From Oscillospiraceae bacterium (lineage in GTDB: Bacteria > Bacillota > Clostridia > Oscillospirales > CAG-272), in NCBI GenBank assembly GCA_015064395.1, contig SVSH01000006.1, positions 14,114-78,113 on the forward strand: a stretch of DNA of 64,000 nt, in the 5' to 3' direction. Below, piece after piece: positions 5,712-62,630 of this stretch (position 1 is the stretch's first letter; each line of letters begins with the position of its first letter). The notes beneath the pieces were generated by a model. That model was not told the DNA's origin, ran no database searches, and was given only the letters and a program-made list of their open reading frames with translations. Both the position numbers and the translations under genes were made by a program.

Positions 5712-5750
5712 TCACCAAATTGCTGCCAAGCCTTTTGGCTTGGCAGCAAT
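5712..5750 (-). terminator. Hairpin terminator downstream of the 1072-aa surface-protein gene
   Basis: Perfect 14-bp stem ATTGCTGCCAAGCC/GGCTTGGCAGCAAT (5719-5750) with a 4-nt loop. On the minus strand it is followed only by TTTGGTG, a weak U tract. Confidence 0.5.
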
Positions 5751-9192: not shown

Positions 9193-10302
9193 TCAGTCCT
9201 TAGGACCCAGTGTCACGTCGTAATCACCAAGATACTGCTGAATCAGAGCAGCATCCTTGATGGTGATGTCGCCGTCGCCGTCAGCATCAGCAGAATCCTT
9301 GATAGTCACATCGTAATCACCGAGATACTGCTGAATCAGAGCAGCATCCTTGATGGTGATGTCGCCGTCGCCGTCAGCATCGCCGTAGATGATCTCATCA
9401 TCCGCCGCAGGCTTCTCTGCCCCACAAACGCACTTGTCACCTTCCTGGTTGTAAGTGTGCTCGACGGGAGCATCGGACTTCGTGTGGTTCTTATCATTAC
9501 CGCAAACGTAGTTCGCGGTGTGCGTGCCGTCGCCGTTGTCGGTGTAATTGCTGGGTTCGCCCCACGCGTGGTCAAGCGCAGCCACGTTCGCCTCCGTCTC
9601 GGTTTGGGTCTCCGCCCAAGCCTCGGTAAAGGTTGCCGTGTAGGTAGTTTCACCCTTGTCCTCACAGGTAGGATCCTTGGTCTGCTCGGACGTCACGCCC
9701 GTAGACTTTGCCGTGGCGGTCTTGCCACAAGCGCACTTACCGCTTGCCGTGCACTCGGTGTTGTCCGCATTCCATGTGTAACCGGTAGCCGTGTACTCGT
9801 GATCCTTGATGGTCACCATCTCGGTCACCTCGGTTTTCTCCGTAAGAACCTCCAAGTTGTAACCGTCCTTCATGGTGGCCAACTCAAGATCCGTCACACC
9901 AAGGTTGAACGAACCCGTAACTCCGGCGGGAACATCATAGATGATGGTCAGCAGATCTGTTGTTGTTTTGTTCCCTGCCTCCGATTCATACCAAACGATG
10001 AGATCTTTTCCCGTGTCCGTATTGTAGTTGTTTTCATCGATCAATACCGTCTCACTACCCATAACGGTGTTGATACTCCAACCATCAGGAATGATCACTT
10101 CAAGATACATCGAGGTGATTGCGATTTCTTCGCTCGCCTTCAGCGTCACGGTCACCCTCTGCATGTCTTCGCTGACGCACACCGTGGCCTGTTCCGGCAC
10201 AACTGAATAGCTGACACTGTTCGCAGCCCATCCTGTCACCCCAAGCATCACGCACATAGCCAGAGCGACGAGCACGATGCCGAGTTTTTTGATCTTGTTC
10301 AT
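9193..10302 (-). CDS. Secreted adaptor-type protein with signal peptide, cohesin-like module, Cys/His-rich units and tandem dockerin segments
   Basis: 369-aa ORF with ATG preceded by GAAAGGA. Signal peptide is MNKIKKLGIVLVALAMCVMLGVTGWA/AN. The C-terminus contains GDADGDGDITIKDAALIQQYLGDYDV twice. Confidence 0.85.
   Translation of the reverse strand: MNKIKKLGIVLVALAMCVMLGVTGWAANSVSYSVVPEQATVCVSEDMQRVTVTLKASEEIAITSMYLEVIIPDGWSINTVMGSETVLIDENNYNTDTGKDLIVWYESEAGNKTTTDLLTIIYDVPAGVTGSFNLGVTDLELATMKDGYNLEVLTEKTEVTEMVTIKDHEYTATGYTWNADNTECTASGKCACGKTATAKSTGVTSEQTKDPTCEDKGETTYTATFTEAWAETQTETEANVAALDHAWGEPSNYTDNGDGTHTANYVCGNDKNHTKSDAPVEHTYNQEGDKCVCGAEKPAADDEIIYGDADGDGDITIKDAALIQQYLGDYDVTIKDSADADGDGDITIKDAALIQQYLGDYDVTLGPKD
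9214..9384 (-). other. Dockerin (two EF-hand-like Ca loops plus helices), nearly perfect internal duplicate
   Basis: D-A-D-G-D-G-D-I-T-I-K-D loops occur twice. The DNA copies sit at a 93-nt offset (9214 vs 9307) and are almost identical. Confidence 0.8.
9805..10215 (-). other. Second cohesin-like module (adaptor protein aa ~30-166)
   Basis: VTVTLKASEEIAITSMYLEVIIPDGWSI...LLTIIYDVPAGVTGSFNLGVTDLELA has the same layout as the module at 8411-8899. It is weaker than that one. Confidence 0.4.
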
Positions 10303-10350: not shown

Positions 10351-13300
10351 TCAAGTGCCCTCTTGACCTGAGGTATCCCAGGTCAAGTTGGCATTTTTAC
10401 GCTGAGCTGCGTTAATCAGCGCCAGGTCGATTGCCGTGATCCTGCCGTCGCCATTGACGTCATACACGGCCGTTGCTGTTTCGTTGTACTCTTGCTTGCC
10501 AAGCACAGCCGCTTGCAAGTCTTTCACGTCATCTTCGGACAACTGACCGTCGCCGTCGTAGTCGCCCTTGACAGCCACGATGACCTCAGTCGCATTCTCC
10601 GGTGCTTCGTAAGTGTAACTACCATCTTCGTTCTTGGTGGCTTGCAGTGCAACGTATTCGTTCGTTGCACTATCCTTATACACAACCACGCAAGCTTGCT
10701 CGTTCTTTACTGTTACGGTCTGCTCGAAGACAGTGTGCTCGATCTTATCTTCCTCGTGATCATTAACGTTTACCTTAACGTTCACCAGGCCGCATGCGCA
10801 CTTGTTGTCCTGAATGCTATGGCCCTCATGTCCGTAAGAATCGCCGCATTCGGAGCAGATGTTCCAGTGGCCGTCCTTATCGTAGGCGTCGTGAGAGTGA
10901 CCGTTTGCTGTGCTACGGTTATGGCCCTTCGCAGGAACAACTTCCTGTGCAACCGTGGTTTCGCCGCATACCGAGCAGTGCTTGCCTTCGGTAAGACCGG
11001 TGTTTTCACAGTCGGGAGTGACTGCCGCGTCAACCACTTCGGTGTGGCCGAGAGCAGCAACAGTTTCCTGCGCTACCAAAACCTTATCACATACCGAGCA
11101 GTGCTTACCTTCGGTAAGACCGGTGTTGGTGCAGTCGGGAGTGACTGCCGCGTCGACTACTTCGGTATGACCGAGTGCGTCAACCGTAATCGTTTCGCGG
11201 CTGATTTCCGCATCGCAAACCGTACAGTATACTACGTTATCGTAGCTACCCGTGTTTTCACAATCAGGATCAACATTGTTTTCTACAACAACTTCACCTT
11301 CGGCGTGGCCAAGAGCATCAACCGTAACAGTCTCTCGGCTGAGTTCCGCATCGCAAACCGTACAGTATACTACGTTGTCGTAGCTACCGTCTGCCGTGCA
11401 GGTGGGAGCCTTGTTGTTTTCTACCACAGCCTCGCCTGCAGTGTGTCCCTTCGCAGGAACTTCCTGCTGCGCTAGCAAAACTTCGTCACATACCGAGCAG
11501 TGCTTGCCTTCGGTAAGACCGGTGTTTTCACAGTCGGGAGCGACTGCCTCGTCAACCACTTCGGTGTGGCCGAGAGCAGCATTCAATGTCGTTCCGCACA
11601 CCGTACAGGTCTGTGCAGTAGTACAAGTTGCGTCTGCGCCAGGGGTGTGACCCTTTGCAACAACTACTTCCTGCGCTAGCAAAACTTCACCACATACCGA
11701 GCAGTGCTTACCTTCGGTAAGACCGGTCTCGGTACAGGTCGGAGCGACTGCCGCGTCGACTACTTCGGTATGACCGAGTGCGTCAACCGTAATCGTTTCG
11801 CGGCTGATTTCCGCATCGCAAACCGTACAGTATACTACGTTATCGTAGCTACCCGTGTTTTCACAATCAGGATCAACATTGTTTTCTACAACAACTTCAC
11901 CTTCGGCGTGGCCAAGAGCATCAACCGTAACAGTCTCTCGGCTGAGTTCCGCATCGCAAACCGTACAGTATACTACGTTGTCGTAGCTACCGTCTGTCGT
12001 ACAAGTGGCGTCAACGTTGTTTTCAACCACTACTTCACCGTGGGTGTGTTCGTGGTTATACGCCGTGTACTCTACACCGTTGTAAGTAATATCCTCGACG
12101 CACTTGAAATTGTCCGTAATGTAGGAACCAACTTCAGTGATGTCCTTGGCGATTGCTACAGTATTCGCATGATAACACAGTTGCCCGCATGACAGAGCTG
12201 TTGTCATTTGAGATGCAATCGTGGGAGATTGGATATATACAGAAGACAAATTAAAGCAGTTATAGAAAGCAGCCGTCCCAATACTCGTCACACTTTTAGG
12301 AATATTATTGATGTTTGCGAGCGAGATGCACTCGGCAAATGCCCGGTCGCCTATGTTCATGATTGCATCACCAAATGTTACATTAGCCAACAAATCACAT
12401 CCATAGAAAGCATACATATCAATGTTCTTCACATTGTTGGGCAGAGATATACTTGTTATCGAAACGCACTCAGAAAAAGCATACCCGCCAATAGTCTCGA
12501 GGCTGTTGGGGAAGGTTATACTTGTTAGTGAACTACAATTATAGAATGCCATTCGGCTTATATTTGTCACACCTTCAGGTATTACCAAATTTGTCAAAAG
12601 TTGATTGTTTAGGTAGAGCTTTGCTGAAGATGACTCATATAGTGGGCTACTATCAAACGTTATTTGACACCACACTGCAATATCCGTAATATACACATTT
12701 TTTAGTGCGCCACAATTCTGGAACGCAGTATCTTTTATATGCGTTACGCCTTTTCCAATGGTAATACTTTCCAAAGCACTACACCGAGCGAACAGCCCTC
12801 TTTCAATGCGTGTTATACCATCAGGAATAGCAATATTTGTTAATGCACTACATCCATTAAATGCGCCTTCTTCCATATACACCAAGGAACGGGGAAGAAT
12901 AATGTCATTCAACGAGATACATTCAATAAACGCTTGTTCTCCTATCCCTACTAGATTTTCACCTAGTGTTACATTCGTTAGTGAAGCACAACCACGGAAT
13001 GCAAAGCCTTGTATATTCAACACGCTATCGCCAATCTCAACGCTTATTAACGAGTCACAGTTATCGAATGCATATGCTCCAATATTAACCACATCGCCTC
13101 GGATAATTGCCTTAGAAATCTCATACTCGCTCCACGGAGCCTTGAGATAGGAATCCCAATTCTTCTTCATTTCTCCGTGACCGCAAATCACCAATGCATA
13201 GTTCCCCGTTTCTCCTAACAGATGAAGATAAGCAATAACTCGGTCCGTGGGGTAATTGGAAACATCCCACCAAATATCCGACGGCTGATCTGCACCACAG

Positions 13301-16300
13301 ATGGAGCAGGCCCATTCGTCATTATACTCGTGACGAACAGGTTTTTCCTCATAGGTCGTATAGTCGCAACGTGAACACGTCTCGTATGCATCCCAACCGA
13401 CTTCGGTACAGTTGGGTTCCTTGGCGTCGTGATGAATCTCATCGTGGCCAAGCGCATCCACATAGCTGTCTTTGTAACTGTCACCGCAGCGGCATGTATG
13501 AGTTGTGTAACCCTGTGCTGTACACGTAGGAGCGGTTACTACTTCGGTGTGGTTGTGGCCCAAAGCCGCTACAGGCAGATGGGAAACTGCTCCGCAATCG
13601 TTACATCTTACCTTATTAGTGCCGCCTTCTGTACAGGTGGGAGGTGTCACAACGATGATCTCGCCCCAGTTGTGGTTCTTGACCGTGCCCTCGGTCAGTC
13701 CACAATTACTACAGGTCTTGGGAGCACTACAGGTCGCATCGACCCAGTTGTGCCCGATTGCAGGAACCTCGTCCGTCACGCTGTGATCGCAACGAGTACA
13801 CTCGTGCTTCTTATAGCCAGGTTCGGTACAAGTGGGCGCCTTGTTGTCGCCGCCCGTCATATCGTGGCCGAGAGCCGCAACTTTGTCAGCAACGTAGCTG
13901 TCGCCGCACGCACAAGTATATGTCGTGTAACCTGCTGCCGTACAAGTAGGAGCGGTTACGACTGAGTTGTAGCTGTGGCCGGTGGCTGCAACTTCTTCTG
14001 TATAAGTATGAGTTGCGTCATTTTTACACGTATAGGTCTTAACGCCCTTCTCCGTACAAGTAGGATTGGTCGTTACGACACCGTCATTGTAGTCGTGGCC
14101 AGTAGCCGCAACTTCTTTATATGTCGTGTATTCACATACCGAGCAGTACTCGTATGCTTCGTGACCCTTCTCGGTACAAGTCGGGGCTTTTGCCTCTACC
14201 TGCGTCAATGCGTGACCCGTTGCTTTAATTTCCTCGGTGTAAGTGTCACCGCAAGAGCAGGTAAAAGCTTTAATACCAACTTCGGTACAAGTGGGGTTCT
14301 TTGTTACCGATTCGGTGTAGCTATGTCCGAGTGCTTCACCTTCGGTTTCGCCACAGGTCTTACAGGTCTTGGGATCTGTGCAGGTTGCATCGATCCAATC
14401 GTGACCTAATGCTTCACCTTCGGTTGCACCACAGACTGAGCAGGTCTTGGGTGTGTCACAATCAGCTTCGGTCCACTTGTGTCCGAGTGCTTCACCTTCG
14501 GTTTCACCGCAGACGGAGCAGGTCTTGGGGGTGTCGCAATCTGCGTCAGTCCAACTGTGGCCGATAGCAGCATTCAATGTCGTTCCGCACACCGTACAGG
14601 TCTGTGCGTTTTCGCAATCTGCTTCTGCGCCGGGAGTGTGGCCATTAGCAGCAACTACTTCCTGTGCTACCAAAACTTCTTTACATACCGAGCAGTGCTT
14701 ACCTTCGGTAAGACCCGTTGCGGTACAGGTGGGAGCGACTGCTTCGTCGATCACCTCGGTGTGGCCGAGGGCGTCAACTACTTCCTGCGCCACCAAAACT
14801 TCGCCACATACCGAGCAGTGCTTACCTTCGGTCAGACCCGTTTCGGTACAGGTGGGAGCCTTGGCCTCGTCGATTACTTCGGTGTGGCCGAGAACAGGAA
14901 TTTCTTCCTGTGCCACCAAAACTTCGCCACATACCGAGCAGTGCTTACCTTCGGTAAGACCCGTTGCGGTACAAGTAGCATTTACTGCCGCGTCAACCAC
15001 TTCGGTGTGGCCGAGAGCGTCAACTTCGTCAGAAGTGTAGGTGTCGCCACAGGAGCACGTGTATGTCGTGTATCCCTTCTCCGTACAAGTCGGAGCGGTT
15101 GCGACGGAGTTGTAGCTGTGGCCAGTGGCCGCAACTTCTTTATACGTCGTGTATTCACATACCGAGCAGTACTCGTATGCTTCATGACCCTTCTCGGTAC
15201 AGGTCGGGGCTTTTGCCTCCACCTGCGTCAGCGTATGGCCCGTCGCTTCAATTTCCTCGGTGTAAGTGTCACCGCAAGAGCAGGTAAAAGTTTTAATACC
15301 AACTTCTGTACAGGTGGGTTGTTTTGTGATCGATTCGGTGTAGACATGGTCCGCAGGAGTGCGGGTTGCGCCGCAGACGTTACATTCTGCGTCACAGGCG
15401 TTGTCCCATGAGTGATTACCCGTAGCTGAGATCGTTTTGTTTTCGGTTTTAATTACAGTGTTACATACAGAACAATATGTAACGAGATCATATGAACCGT
15501 CCTTACCACAAGTTGCTTCTACGCGATTTTCTTCACGAGTCGCTTCGGTGTGGCCACTATTTTCACATTTGGTCTTGTTACAACCGTTATCGCAAACATT
15601 GTCATCGCCATAGCTATGATTCAACTTGGGAACTTCCGTTTGCTTCACAGTTGCCGTGCCACATACCGAGCAGTGCTTACCTTCGGTAAGACCCGTTTCG
15701 GTACAAGTGGGAGCGACTGCCGCGTCGATTACTTCGGTGTGGCCGAGAGCAGCAACAGTTTCCTGCGCTACCAAAACCTTATCACATACCGAGCACTTCT
15801 TGCCTTCCGTCAAACCGGTCTCGGTGCAGGTTGCTGCCTTGCCGGCAATCGTTTCTTCGGTGTGGCCGAGGGCATTTACTACCGTCTGCGCTACCAAAAC
15901 TTCGCCACATACCGAGCAGTGCTTACCTTCGGTAAGACCCGTTTCGGTACAGGTAGGAGCAACTGCCTCGTCAATCACTTCGGTGTGGCCAAGAGCAGCA
16001 ACTTCTTCCTGCTCTACCAAAACTTCACCACATACCGAGCAGTGCTTGCCTTCCGTCAGACCGGTCTCGGTGCAAGTTGCATTCTTGCCGGGAATCGTTT
16101 CTTCAGTGTGGCCGAGAGCAGCAACTTCTTCGGTATAAGTATGGCTTGCATCGTTTTTACATGTGTAGGTCTTTACGCCCTTTTCAGTACAAGTCGGGGC
16201 CGTTGTGACTACACCTTCGTAGTCGTGGCCGGTTGCAGAAATGATAACAGTCTTTTCTGCAATTTTATCTTTGATCCAAAGGCTATCACAGTCAGCAAAA

Positions 16301-41616: not shown

Positions 41617-41658
41617 ATAAAAATGCCTCTTTTCGCATTTGAAAAGAGGCATTTTTGC
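41617..41658 (-). terminator. Intrinsic terminator after pgsA
   Basis: 13-bp stem AATGCCTCTTTTC/GAAAAGAGGCATT (41622-41653) flanked by T/A runs on both sides. Confidence 0.7.
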
Positions 41659-43622: not shown

Positions 43623-43740
43623 GTTATGTGTTCCTTTCGGGGAAATTAGCATGCATAAAAATACAGTTTGATTATAGCATGGGGGAGGAAAATTGTCAAG
43701 GTTAGATGGTTGAAATTTCGAACAACTGCTTCTGCCCACG

Positions 43741-44643
43741 CTCACACTGTGCTTCGCACGCGTTCGCTGTACCGGCTTTTGATGTTACTTCTTTCTCATT
43801 CAAGAAAGAAGTAACCAAGAAAGTGAACCAAAACGTTCCCTCTTGGAACTCCCTTTCCGTGCCACTCTACAAAGATGATCAAGAGATAGACATAAAAATC
43901 TTTTGTATAGTGCTTCAAGTTTTGCTACCACGAGCGGCAGGCGGGGAAAGCATGGGCTTTTGCCAAGGTAAACCCATCTTGGGCGTGCGCTCATGCGCCC
44001 AAGATGGAGGAGGCTTGACGAGACAAAAAGCCCCGGCGGCTCTCGAAAAGCCGTCGGGCGGTGGGGTCCCAAGGGGTATCCCCTTGGTTCCCTTCTTGGC
44101 TACTTCTTGGGGAATGCCAAGAAGTAGCATAGGCTCTCCCGCCGCGCGTTGTGCGGCGGGCAAAGGAAAGAAAACTGAATTTCAAACAACTTTTCCTACA
44201 GACGCGCACACAGCTGCGCGCGTGCGCTGCACAGGCATGGATGCCATTTCTTTGTCATTCCACAAAGAAATGGCAAAAGAAAAGGAACCAAAGGCTGCCG
44301 CCTTTGGAAACTGCTCCTTTGCCGCTCTGCAAAGAGGAAGAAGAGAGATCACATAAACGCTTTTAATGCTGTGCCTTAACTTAAGACAGCACGAGCGGCA
44401 GGTGAGGAAAGCAAAAGCTTTTACCAAGTCAAACCCATCTTGGGCGTGCGCTTATGCTCCCAAGATGGAGGAGGCTTGACGAGACAAAAAGCCCCGGCGG
44501 CTCTCGAAAAGCCGTCGGGCGGTGGGATCCCAAGGGGTATTAGACCCCTTGGCTGATTTTCTTTCGCCCTTTCTTTGTTCAGCGACAAAGAAAGGGCATA
44601 ACTCCCCCGCCGCGCGTTGTGTGGCGGGCAAAGAAAAGAACGC
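43741..44643 (+). repeat. Hairpin-mosaic intergenic repeat region A (two diverged tandem ~460-nt units)
   Basis: A ~115-nt core (AAACCCATCTTGGGCG...CCCAAGATGGAGGAGGCTTG...GCCCCGGCGGCTCT..AAAAGCCGTCGGGCGG...CCAAGGGG...CCCCTTGG) occurs at 43970-44087 and 44431-44552. There are several 12-bp hairpins of the xxxxTTCTTTG...CAAAGAAxxxx type. Confidence 0.75.
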
Positions 44644-44677
44644 TAAAAATCAAGGGAAGCTCCCTTGAAGCTTCCCT
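44644..44677 (-). terminator. Intrinsic terminator after typA
   Basis: Minus strand reads GGGAAGCT-TCAAGGG-AGCTTCCC followed by TTGATTTTT. Confidence 0.65.
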
Positions 44678-44689
44678 CGCATATATTCC

Positions 44690-49853: not shown

Positions 49854-49890
49854 GGAAAAAAGCAACGCTTCCATAAGAAAGCGTTGCTTT
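49854..49890 (-). terminator. Intrinsic terminator after the CDF transporter gene
   Basis: Minus strand reads AGCAACGCTT-tcttatgg-AAGCGTTGCT followed by TTTTTT. Confidence 0.8.
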
Positions 49891-49897
49891 TTCTATT

Positions 49898-54080: not shown

Positions 54081-54179
54081 AAATAGCCCTCGCCTTCATG
54101 GTTACTTTCTTATTATTTTATCATAGGTGGGGGAATATTACAAGGGGAGATGGAATTTATTTTTGGATATGAGGAACGA

Positions 54180-54830
54180 ATGTTCAAACGGCTTCTCCTT
54201 TCCACGCGCATACAGCCCACCTCGACTCCGTCGAGCTGCGCGCTGCGCTGTACCGGCGTAGGTGCCATTTCTTTGTCGTTCCACAAAGAAATGGCGAAAG
54301 AAAAGGAACCAAGGGGCTTAATGCCCCTTGGAACCCCGCCGCCCGACGGCTTTTGGAGAGCCGCCGGGGCTTTTGCTTTCGCAAGCCTCCTCCATCTTGG
54401 GCGCATGAGCGCACGCCCAAGATGGGTTTGTTGTAGCAAAATTTCTTGTTTCCTCCGCCTGCCGCTCGTGTTGGCTTGAGTTGAGGCACAGCACAGGGAG
54501 CGTTTATGTGATCTCTCGTCTTTCTCCTTGCAGAGCGGCAAAGGAGCGGTTTCCAAAGGCGGCAGCCTTTGGCGCGCTTTCTTGGTTCGTTCTTTGCCGC
54601 GCGGCAAAGAATGAACACCCCCTGCCGGTACAGCGCGGCGCGAAGCAGTATGCGCGTCCGTAGAAGTAGTTACTTGAAATTCAGCTTTCTTCCCTTCGTC
54701 CGCCGCACAACGCGCGGCGGAACTGCCTATGCTACTTCTTGGCCAACGAGAAAGAATGAACATCAAAAACCGCACAGCGAGCGCGTGCAAAGCACCGTGT
54801 GAGCGTCCGGCTACGCAGACAGTTGAAAAT
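54180..54830 (-). repeat. Hairpin-mosaic intergenic repeat region B (inverted copy of region A modules)
   Basis: The reverse complement of 54309-54429 matches the 115-nt core of region A almost base for base. The reverse complement of 54309-54720 is collinear with 44139-44552. The reverse complement of 54759-54804 matches 43741-43786. Confidence 0.75.
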
Positions 54831-54881
54831 TCAACGAAAAACAACCCGAAGCCAAACGCTCCGGGTTGCATATCCATTCTT

Positions 54882-55289
54882 TTAGTGTCCGTTCAATTCA
54901 TCCAGCAATCGGTCAAAAGCACTGGCTTGCTCATACGTCATTCTACACCACGAACCGCCGCTGTTTCGAATAAACATATTGCCGAAATGATAAATCGTTT
55001 CCTTGCTCCCATCCTCGTATTCAAGAGCAATTACCCACGTCATACCACCATATTCATCCGGGTTTTCTTCAAAATCAGAAAGCAACTCTAAATTCGAAAG
55101 ATAATTCACAATGGCTTGGGCATCTTGCCCGGTATAGGAATAATCGTAACCTTCCGGCAAAGAAGAGACCGAAATGCGCGCGACTGTACCCTTCTTCAAA
55201 AGGACACTTCCCTTCGTGTAGGCCGGAGAACAACCCACAAGCGCCACGGCACACAGCAAGGCCAAAATAAATACCGCAATCTTTTTCAT
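54882..55289 (-). CDS. Lipoprotein, unknown function
   Basis: MKKIAVFILALLCAVALVGC/S carries the canonical lipobox LVGC. AGAGGG lies 6 nt upstream of ATG 55289. Confidence 0.7.
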   Translation of the reverse strand: MKKIAVFILALLCAVALVGCSPAYTKGSVLLKKGTVARISVSSLPEGYDYSYTGQDAQAIVNYLSNLELLSDFEENPDEYGGMTWVIALEYEDGSKETIYHFGNMFIRNSGGSWCRMTYEQASAFDRLLDELNGH

Positions 55290-55420
55290 AGTCATCCCTC
55301 TTTCTTTTTGTATTTTGGAAGTAGCTACTATAAAAGACGTAAAAAATGCAAAAATGTTCCCTGTTTTTCGGAAATTGTTCAAAAAATTTTGTTTATCCAG
55401 AGATGCTTTGAGGAGATCAT

Positions 55421-62365: not shown

Positions 62366-62441
62366 GCTGGTGTGGCTCAGTTGGTAGAGCAGCTGATTCG
62401 TAATCAGCAGGTCGCCGGTTCGAGTCCGGCCATCAGCTCCA
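62366..62441 (+). tRNA. tRNA-Thr (anticodon CGU), CCA encoded
   Basis: Hand-folded cloverleaf. Acceptor GCTGGTG/CATCAGC (one G-U pair), D arm GCTC-AGTTGGTA-GAGC, anticodon arm GCTGA-TTCGTAA-TCAGC, variable loop AGGTC, T arm GCCGG-TTCGAGT-CCGGC, discriminator T, then CCA. Confidence 0.93.
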
Positions 62442-62443
62442 AA

Positions 62444-62480
62444 CAAAAGAGCACTGCGAGAGCAGTGCTCTTTTGTTTGG
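62444..62480 (+). terminator. Intrinsic terminator after tRNA-Thr
   Basis: 14-bp stem CAAAAGAGCACTGC-gaga-GCAGTGCTCTTTTG followed by TTTGG. Confidence 0.8.
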
Positions 62481-62630
62481 AAATGAAGCGCGCTAACGCG
62501 CATGAAAAATGAAGCAGGGCTTCGCCCTGTGAAGCGAGCCTTCGGCTCACGGAGAGGTAACATCGCGCTTCGCTTCATACGAGCGCAGCGAGTGCTTCGT
62601 GGCGCCGTGCGCCGCTTCATATTCGCGAAG
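62481..62630. repeat. Composite palindromic element made of small GC hairpins flanked by ATGAAGC/GCTTCAT
   Basis: Small hairpins GCGCG-ctaa-CGCGC, CAGGGC-ttc-GCCCTG, GAGCC-ttc-GGCTC and GGCGC-cgt-GCGCC. ATGAAGC appears on the left side and GCTTCAT on the right. Confidence 0.4.

Follow-up and report, generated by a model that had tools for sequence, protein, structure and literature searches.

The stretch analysed here (the window) comprises 64,000 nt of an Oscillospiraceae bacterium (assembly GCA_015064395.1, contig SVSH01000006.1, positions 14,114 to 78,113) and carries, in two of its intergenic gaps, four copies of a hairpin-rich repeat element. The first gap separates rimO from typA, both on the − strand and confirmed by Pfam, and holds two head-to-tail elements of 476 and 480 nt (43711–44654). 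The second gap lies 10 kb away (54177–54834) and contains an inverted 508-nt copy together with a 162-nt copy without the interior; the inverted copy sits between a comM/yifB-type ATPase gene and the gene for a small lipoprotein (166 amino acids with a lipobox, 54882–55382). Full units in the window therefore span 476–508 nt. The elements are as follows.

43711–44186, + strand: element A, 476 nt; left end 43711–43846, centre 43847–44068, right end 44069–44186
44175–44654, + strand: element B, 480 nt, head-to-tail with A; left end 44175–44307, then the centre, right end 44530–44654
44175–44186, no strand: shared near-palindromic 12-nt junction CTGAATTTCAAA, the terminus of both A and B
54177–54684, − strand: element C, 508 nt, inverted relative to A and B; ends 54553–54684 and 54177–54331
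54673–54834, − strand: element D, 162 nt, an internally deleted copy

A preceding sequence-only reading of this DNA had described two diverged tandem units with a core occurring three times, the third time inverted, and every feature it listed is present no more than 1 nt from where it had been placed. Self-BLASTN and a repeat search aligned the tandem units (43714–44185 and 44178–44653) at 75% identity with a spacing of 461–468 nt, and self-BLASTN placed the third copy, inverted, at 54263–54743, where it is 82% identical to unit B across 485 nt; element B is thus 75% identical to A and 82% to C. The three core copies lie at 43935–44087, 44396–44560 and, inverted, 54301–54464. Beyond the four elements at these two loci, self-comparison found no further copy in the 64-kb window. 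Alignment of the outer parts of the units revealed that each is bounded by terminal inverted repeats of ~130 nt. With an nhmmer model of this inverted end, elements were delimited as converging pairs of ends, the termini being extrapolated; such pairs delimit all four window copies (for element A, 43713–43846 on the + strand and 44182–44069 on the − strand) and 15 more copies in other sequences. In arrays, the hairpin-bearing ends found by nhmmer alternate between + and − orientation, with two linker types, and the junction shared by A and B is found likewise in tandem arrays at two other loci (L004 and L006) and in the window at 54673–54684.

Each end is composite. From the outside in, it consists of an AT-rich terminus (CTRAAnTTT), the run CTTCTCCTAC, a GC-rich hairpin, a hairpin that we call H, an AAGAAAG spacer and a second hairpin, H2. 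H has 12–14 bp around an invariant TTCTT/AAGAA core and forms a 30–32-nt palindrome; in an alignment of 38 ends it is preceded by (T/G)ATG and followed by C/GAAGAA, and GTAG occurs solely inside one H version. The central region between the ends is variable across the family. It measures ~220 nt in the ~470-nt sub-family, where it holds a long hairpin closed by the 8-bp stem UGCCGCUC/GAGCGGCA, a hairpin C1 with AGGAGGCTTG, and a hairpin C2. Element C has an additional small hairpin inserted at ~54214–54233, and in element D both inverted ends are fused via their H hairpins, which left a chimeric imperfect hairpin at ~54735–54765. The hairpins of the window are listed below, without strand except where one is given.

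43784–43815: H, element A, left end, GTTACTTCTTTCT/AGAAAGAAGTAAC
44099–44128: H, element A, right end, GCTACTTCTTGG/CCAAGAAGTAGC
44242–44275: H, element B, left end, (T)GCCATTTCTTTGT/ACAAAGAAATGGC(A)
44566–44597: H, element B, right end, GCCCTTTCTTTGT/ACAAAGAAAGGGC
54264–54295: H, element C, GCCATTTCTTTGT/ACAAAGAAATGGC
54585–54616: H, element C, GTTCGTTCTTTGCC/GGCAAAGAATGAAC, with the single G·T mispair (A·C on the other strand) conserved in its sub-class
44288–44307: H2, element B, left end, CCAAAGGC/GCCTTTGG
44069–44087 (A, right end), 44530–44552 (B, right end), 54309–54331 and 54553–54572 (C): other copies of H2
~43833–43849: degenerate copy of H2, element A, left end
43974–44007: C1, CCATCTTGGGCG-N10-CGCCCAAGATGG followed by AGGAGGCTTG, perfect
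44435–44468 (one mismatch) and 54392–54425: other copies of C1
44030–44059, + strand: C2, GCCCCGGCGGCT/AGCCGTCGGGC, with a bulge and a G·T pair on the + strand of the unit
44491–44520 and 54341–54370 (inverted): other copies of C2

Several of these hairpins had already been noticed in the sequence-only reading, which assigned them differently. All of its versions of a 12-bp hairpin module exist, including a palindrome placed at ~54590–54615 and found at 54585–54616, but it had missed that they are the two ends of each unit: the module and the stem CCAAGGGG/CCCCTTGG, taken for a third stem of the core, are H and H2 and belong to the ~130-nt terminal inverted repeats. Its core stem CCATCTTGGGCG/CGCCCAAGATGG is perfect at two copies and has one mismatch at the third (44435–44468). 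Hairpin clustering and folding in these regions are beyond chance. Seven of the 11 perfect hairpins of the window (stem of at least 10 bp, loop of 3–10 nt) sit in these 1.6 kb, compared with 0–2 in shuffled windows, and the folding z-scores of unit B against dinucleotide shuffles are −8.6 for the + strand RNA, −7.8 for the − strand RNA and −8.2 for DNA.

Covariation in H was surveyed in 38 ends from 8 sequence sources and scored on a 13-pair stem. The 38 ends carry 20 distinct versions of H, and its stem positions pair in 98.0% of cases, compared with 76.7 ± 1.6% after shuffling and 44–58% when the partner column is slid. Two-sided changes occur in 9 of the 13 pairs and one-sided (G-U) changes in none, and the covariation score of 0.626 (0.217 when shuffled) was attained by 0 of 500 shuffles. 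H2 is perfect in 38/38 ends with at least nine versions, and over the ~800 base pairs of H and H2 there is no one-sided G-U change at all. Covariation is also strong in the GC hairpin of the right end and in the 8-bp stem that closes the long central hairpin. The two other central hairpins behave differently: C1 is nearly invariant in 12 copies, that is, conserved in sequence with no covariation, which suggests a sequence-specific site, and C2 has a G·T pair on one strand in 7/10 copies and A-T in other copies.

The versions of H and H2 combine freely, and an element mostly carries different H versions at its two ends; thus, what is kept is the local hairpin and not end-to-end identity. One sub-class of H, GTTCATTC/GAACGAAC, holds an A·C mispair on the strand read from the outside in (G·T on the complement) in 10 copies from 6 sequence sources and with 4 inner-stem versions. 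Relative to the terminus, this mispair has equal polarity at left and right ends and is thereby two-fold symmetric. At the orthologous end proximal to rimO (43784–43815 and its counterpart in the related locus L017), the H versions differ at ~5 compensated positions, which fits cassette exchange between copies better than serial compensatory mutation in place. Covariation had been taken in the sequence-only reading as evidence for selection on structure; the covariation itself is supported by the shuffling test with the enlarged set of copies, whereas the inference to selection meets the alternative of cassette exchange and the lack of covariation in C1.

The family is confined to a few ruminant-gut Oscillospiraceae. 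In a set of 185,579 species genomes (one genome per species), the core pattern occurs at only three loci in two genomes, the ruminant-gut metagenome-assembled genomes (MAGs) Oscillospiraceae SIG644 and Clostridia RGIG5545, and SIG644 has a single 8-kb stretch with three element-bearing gaps. With a spurious open reading frame (ORF) of the repeat as a protein probe, only 20 clusters matched among 5.8 billion, and the contigs encoding these pseudo-proteins yielded ~15 further elements of 158–641 nt, often in tandem arrays of two or three. In total, ~20 copies are spread across 13 intergenic gaps in either orientation and never within genes. The neighbours of the further elements are housekeeping genes such as infC/lon, marR, prmA, hrcA, tyrS/rpsR, lepA and tkt. 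As expected of the mosaic family first proposed, modules recombine in different orders in other genomes.

Comparison of orthologous gaps points to turnover. Only 1 of 80 metagenomic rimO loci has an element, and this is the closest relative, L017 (RimO 92% identical), which carries one rearranged 563-nt element at the same position upstream of rimO where the window has two; the rimO-proximal element end and the rimO promoter are orthologous between the two. Upstream of comM, the window has 660 nt of elements, L098 (ComM 87% identical) a mini-element of ~170 nt and L097 (91%) none. Both L097 and L098 have more divergent family members elsewhere, and in one such member C1 has a compensated inner stem and H has decayed.

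We consider it probable that these copies represent a lineage-restricted family of non-coding interspersed repeats, which resemble miniature inverted-repeat transposable elements (MITEs) singly and bacterial interspersed mosaic elements (BIMEs) when arrayed. Inverted ends enclose a transposase-free core, and many copies occur at unrelated loci, with their presence differing between related genomes. The family appears to behave as a DNA-level palindromic element rather than a strand-specific RNA gene. A DNA-level element, or at least one in which both strands are required to fold, is favoured because the two strands fold equally well (consensus-structure energies of −148.9 and −149.9 kcal/mol), H and H2 lack G-U changes, the mispair is symmetric and the asymmetric ~470-nt form is found in mixed orientation relative to flanking genes. 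Most likely the elements spread, at least formerly, as non-autonomous transposable elements moved in trans, by an enzyme that would read the hairpin shape and the TTCTT core. They would now occupy the dead space that separates an upstream terminator from the promoter that follows, where they may be inherited vertically, gained or lost, or internally deleted, and recombination between copies would keep reshuffling them by swapping entire perfect-palindrome cassettes.

Several observations weigh against this interpretation. No direct target-site duplication was recognised at solo copies (25 outer-end flanks inspected by eye), for which erosion, or a terminus lying ~20 nt further outward, could account. 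Neither a parent insertion sequence with matching ends nor a transposase was found in the window or in ~190 kb of related loci, and viral contigs (two patterns) and the phage and plasmid collections ('distant' mode) gave no match; among the neighbours of element gaps, all of them housekeeping genes, there is no transposase. Within a genome, copies are 75–88% identical, indicating no recent burst. Mobility is deduced from distribution, as an exact empty site was not found among relatives that, at ~75% DNA identity, are too diverged; one candidate, L003 2607–4496 taken as typA beside rimO, was rejected, Pfam identifying it as lepA. Last, the one-strand G·T pair of C2 (7/10 copies) and the sequence conservation of C1 would also fit a strand-specific RNA or a central protein site.

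An RNA function is the first of two alternatives to which we give a small chance. Elements would be transcribed by read-through from neighbouring genes or from their own promoter, and their hairpins, acting in RNA, would work as bidirectional terminators or insulators, stabilise mRNA by holding back 3′ exonucleases, offer sites to RNase III, or constitute a small RNA ending at H2. The strong covariation in H and H2, in the GC hairpin of the right end and in the 8-bp stem closing the long central hairpin speaks for such a function, as does a G·T pair in C2 that stands on one strand only and alternates with A-T in other copies. Some H2 versions, read inside out and followed by the T-rich run TTCCTTTTCTTT, score as terminator-like, and the gap holds seven terminator-like sites compared with 2.2 ± 1.5 after shuffling; transcription and compensatory changes are both on record for the MITE-like repeats bcr1 and BOX (PMC3184786). 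However, the two strands fold equally well, H and H2 are free of one-sided G-U changes in ~800 base pairs, the elements are mixed in orientation with respect to flanking transcription, CGCG instead of T comes after many H2 versions, and each upstream gene in the window already has a terminator of its own. A promoter scan found no promoter-like site within the elements. Of the Rfam families scanned at gathering threshold over the whole window, only tRNA passed (62366–62438), with no match to an element; a permissive scan of the two gaps gave as its best hit Pxr, which scored 23.4 bits (E = 0.097) where the threshold is 80. In line with the earlier failure to match the repeat to a named family, neither these scans nor the literature on Oscillospiraceae and Clostridia gave a relevant one.

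The second alternative, equally unlikely in our estimate, is that the hairpins serve as single-stranded-DNA recognition sites for an HUH/Y1 (IS200/IS605-like) transposase whose single-copy gene would lie at another genomic position, as in repetitive extragenic palindromes (REPs) and BIMEs of Proteobacteria, with their REPIN populations and tyrosine transposases associated with REPs (RAYTs). A palindrome of 30–32 nt with an invariant core and freely varying, compensated flanks suits an enzyme that reads structure; the arrays share with BIMEs the alternating orientation of the ends and the presence of two linker types; and the absence of a visible target-site duplication is expected of that transposase class. 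Vertical persistence and diverged copies without recent bursts form a pattern known from the REPIN literature. Against this, no RAYT or Y1 gene is present in any fetched locus, the 38-end alignment has no conserved GTAG or CGTC head beside the hairpins, and the unit is 5–10 times the size of a REPIN with a long, conserved, non-palindromic centre.

In form, the family resembles REP/BIME and REPIN sequences. Both comprise short (20–40 nt) extragenic palindromes, here of ~30 nt, that alternate in clusters with two kinds of linker, and both persist vertically as diverged populations; the comparison with BIME- and BOX-like mosaics made from the letters alone was apt for the architecture. The GTAG or CGTC tetranucleotide at the foot of the palindrome is missing here, as is a RAYT gene in the fetched loci; the end is a composite of 130 nt, compared with 35 nt for a REP; the centre is a long conserved segment that contains an invariant hairpin; and the host is a Firmicute (Oscillospiraceae). 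IS200/IS605-derived palindrome-associated elements (PATEs), which have differing sub-terminal hairpins on the left and right and no terminal inverted repeats, were also considered and set aside, as the ends here are homologous inverted copies over ~130 nt.

With bacterial MITEs (Correia/NEMIS of Neisseria, RUP of Streptococcus pneumoniae and bcr1 of the Bacillus cereus group), the family shares a non-coding, intergenic, multi-copy nature, terminal inverted repeats around a core and a long stem-loop fold; in bcr1, compensatory changes keep a cruciform-like fold (PMC3184786). It differs in its ends, which at ~130 nt are chains of three hairpins, whereas those of a typical MITE span 15–40 nt, and in its units of 390–640 nt, which lie at or over the upper size of ~400 bp given with the MITE definition in a review (PMC3184786). 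Unlike in MITEs, no target-site duplication was found, a related insertion sequence is not known, and hairpin versions mostly differ between the two ends of an element. The BOX elements of Streptococcus pneumoniae are likewise intergenic and modular: mosaics of the form boxA-boxB(n)-boxC, whose ends are complementary and whose modules vary in number. No sequence relationship to BOX could be shown, and in the present family the modules are perfect palindromes exchanged as cassettes and the repeat of the arrays is the whole 470-nt unit.

Less probable still is an explanation that needs neither selection nor transposition. The copies would be relics spread solely by recombination or local duplication, and gene conversion between copies, together with intramolecular template switching at replication, would keep their stems perfect. 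Correction of quasi-palindromes by template switching, an established mutational mechanism, would account for perfect Watson-Crick stems without wobble intermediates. Cassette-like exchange at the orthologous end, the tandem arrays and the internal-deletion derivative would fit as well. However, the A·C/G·T mispair survived in 10 copies from 6 sources with 4 inner-stem versions, and an efficient arm-correcting process would have erased it. The dispersal of copies at unrelated loci, in both orientations, also calls for some transposition-like step.

Two ORFs have been drawn through the repeats.

43706–44356, + strand: spurious 216-aa ORF, GenBank MBE6620228.1, locus tag E7625_02535, 'hypothetical protein'
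54113–54877, − strand: spurious 254-aa ORF, the 252-aa version of which is GenBank MBE6620238.1, locus tag E7625_02585, 'hypothetical protein'

That these are genuine proteins, as GenBank annotates, has next to no chance: although both frames are open, were predicted by the annotation pipeline and share their frame over part of the core, no Pfam domain matches either ORF, the copies differ by 1-, 2- and 4-nt indels that break the reading frame, the protein 'homologues' cover just 15–50% of the query, have unrelated lengths and are found only where the DNA repeat occurs, and the DNA is equally palindromic on both strands. Both ORFs are spurious and are artefacts of a repeat, not of low complexity as the sequence-only reading had put it. 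A mini-ORF after C1, ATGGAGGAGGCTTGA, was rejected too, its frame not being conserved across copies.

The elements lie between transcription signals of the flanking genes, which are outside them.

43671–43699, − strand: rimO promoter, TTGACA-17-TATAAT (12/12), outside the element and starting 12 nt beyond the end of A
44651–44679, − strand: typA intrinsic terminator, abutting the end of element B
54115–54143, − strand: comM/yifB promoter, TTGTAA-17-TAAAAT, 33 nt outside the end of element C

The upstream gene of the second gap has its own terminator at 54840–54876, as read from the sequence. The hexamers of the comM promoter are conserved in the window, in L097, which has no element, and in L098, which has a mini-element; an element-borne comM promoter is therefore ruled out, the hexamers being equal in the element-free L097. 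More widely, element arrays end 10–60 nt upstream of outward-facing, near-perfect sigma-70 promoters, at the following positions.

Window, 43671–43699 (−) and 54115–54143 (−)
L002, 5170–5198
L003, 5697–5725
L004, 9405–9433
L006, 9819–9847

In the DNA examined, 5/6 perfect (12/12) promoter matches are no more than 60 nt from the end of an element, a hint that the elements may have been put to use by the host. Element-adjacent promoters also show a run of at least four C in the spacer between −35 and −10 and a C-rich stretch of 10 nt just 5′ of the −35 hexamer. The C-run is found in 5/7 element-adjacent promoters and in 1/41 other matches (Fisher p = 7e-5), a control that is confounded by false promoters; the comM promoter of the element-free relative has a spacer without it. 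A motif, GGGGAGAT (ATCTCCCC on the other strand), recurs 0–25 nt outside many element termini, at these sites.

L007, 3390–3418 and 4003–4030
L002, 5141–5155
L017, 1–29
Window, 54144–54160

At one L007 element the motif is inverted at both ends, so the inverted ends may extend ~20 nt past the model.

Other features of the examined DNA are separate from the family. The remaining four perfect hairpins of the window, with stems of 14–20 bp (5719–5750, 41619–41656, 49857–49892 and 62438–62481), are unrelated to it; three of them have the A-run/stem/T-run form of bidirectional terminators, and the one at 62438–62481 lies directly 3′ of tRNA-Thr (62366–62441). Long tandem repeats with periods of 78–246 nt occur at 9212–9381, 11783–12039, 14324–15025 and 15658–16131, in an apparent large coding region; the abundance of TGC/GCA (cysteine codons on one strand) in their units suggests a repetitive surface protein. 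Downstream of comM in L097 (17893–18527, GCA_965335455.1) are genes for a TnpV-like protein, DUF6809, a Schlafen/AlbA_2 ATPase and an SNF2 helicase, a set that looks like a mobile or defence island; the window has other genes there.

For annotation, these results mean that at least two GenBank 'hypothetical proteins' and ~20 protein clusters of metagenome catalogues are repeat artefacts, and for assembly that a gap-filling repeat is a likely cause of MAG fragmentation in this lineage. The link between elements and strong promoters is a testable lead. At its most far-reaching, and with low probability, the family may be a Firmicute counterpart of REPIN/BIME populations, made of vertically persisting, structure-read hairpin cassettes and kept by a domesticated single-copy transposase, or else an insulator that responds to cruciforms or supercoiling and is placed immediately upstream of the strongest housekeeping promoters. 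For the biology of such repeats, palindrome arms that change together without wobble intermediates separate a hairpin kept in both strands from an RNA structure. Overall, this is one more bacterial intergenic repeat family: a new, unnamed member of the mosaic repeats, of the ordinary 'junk-like' kind yet unusually elaborate, whose unusual features are its long, hairpin-chain inverted ends and its cassette-like perfect palindromes.

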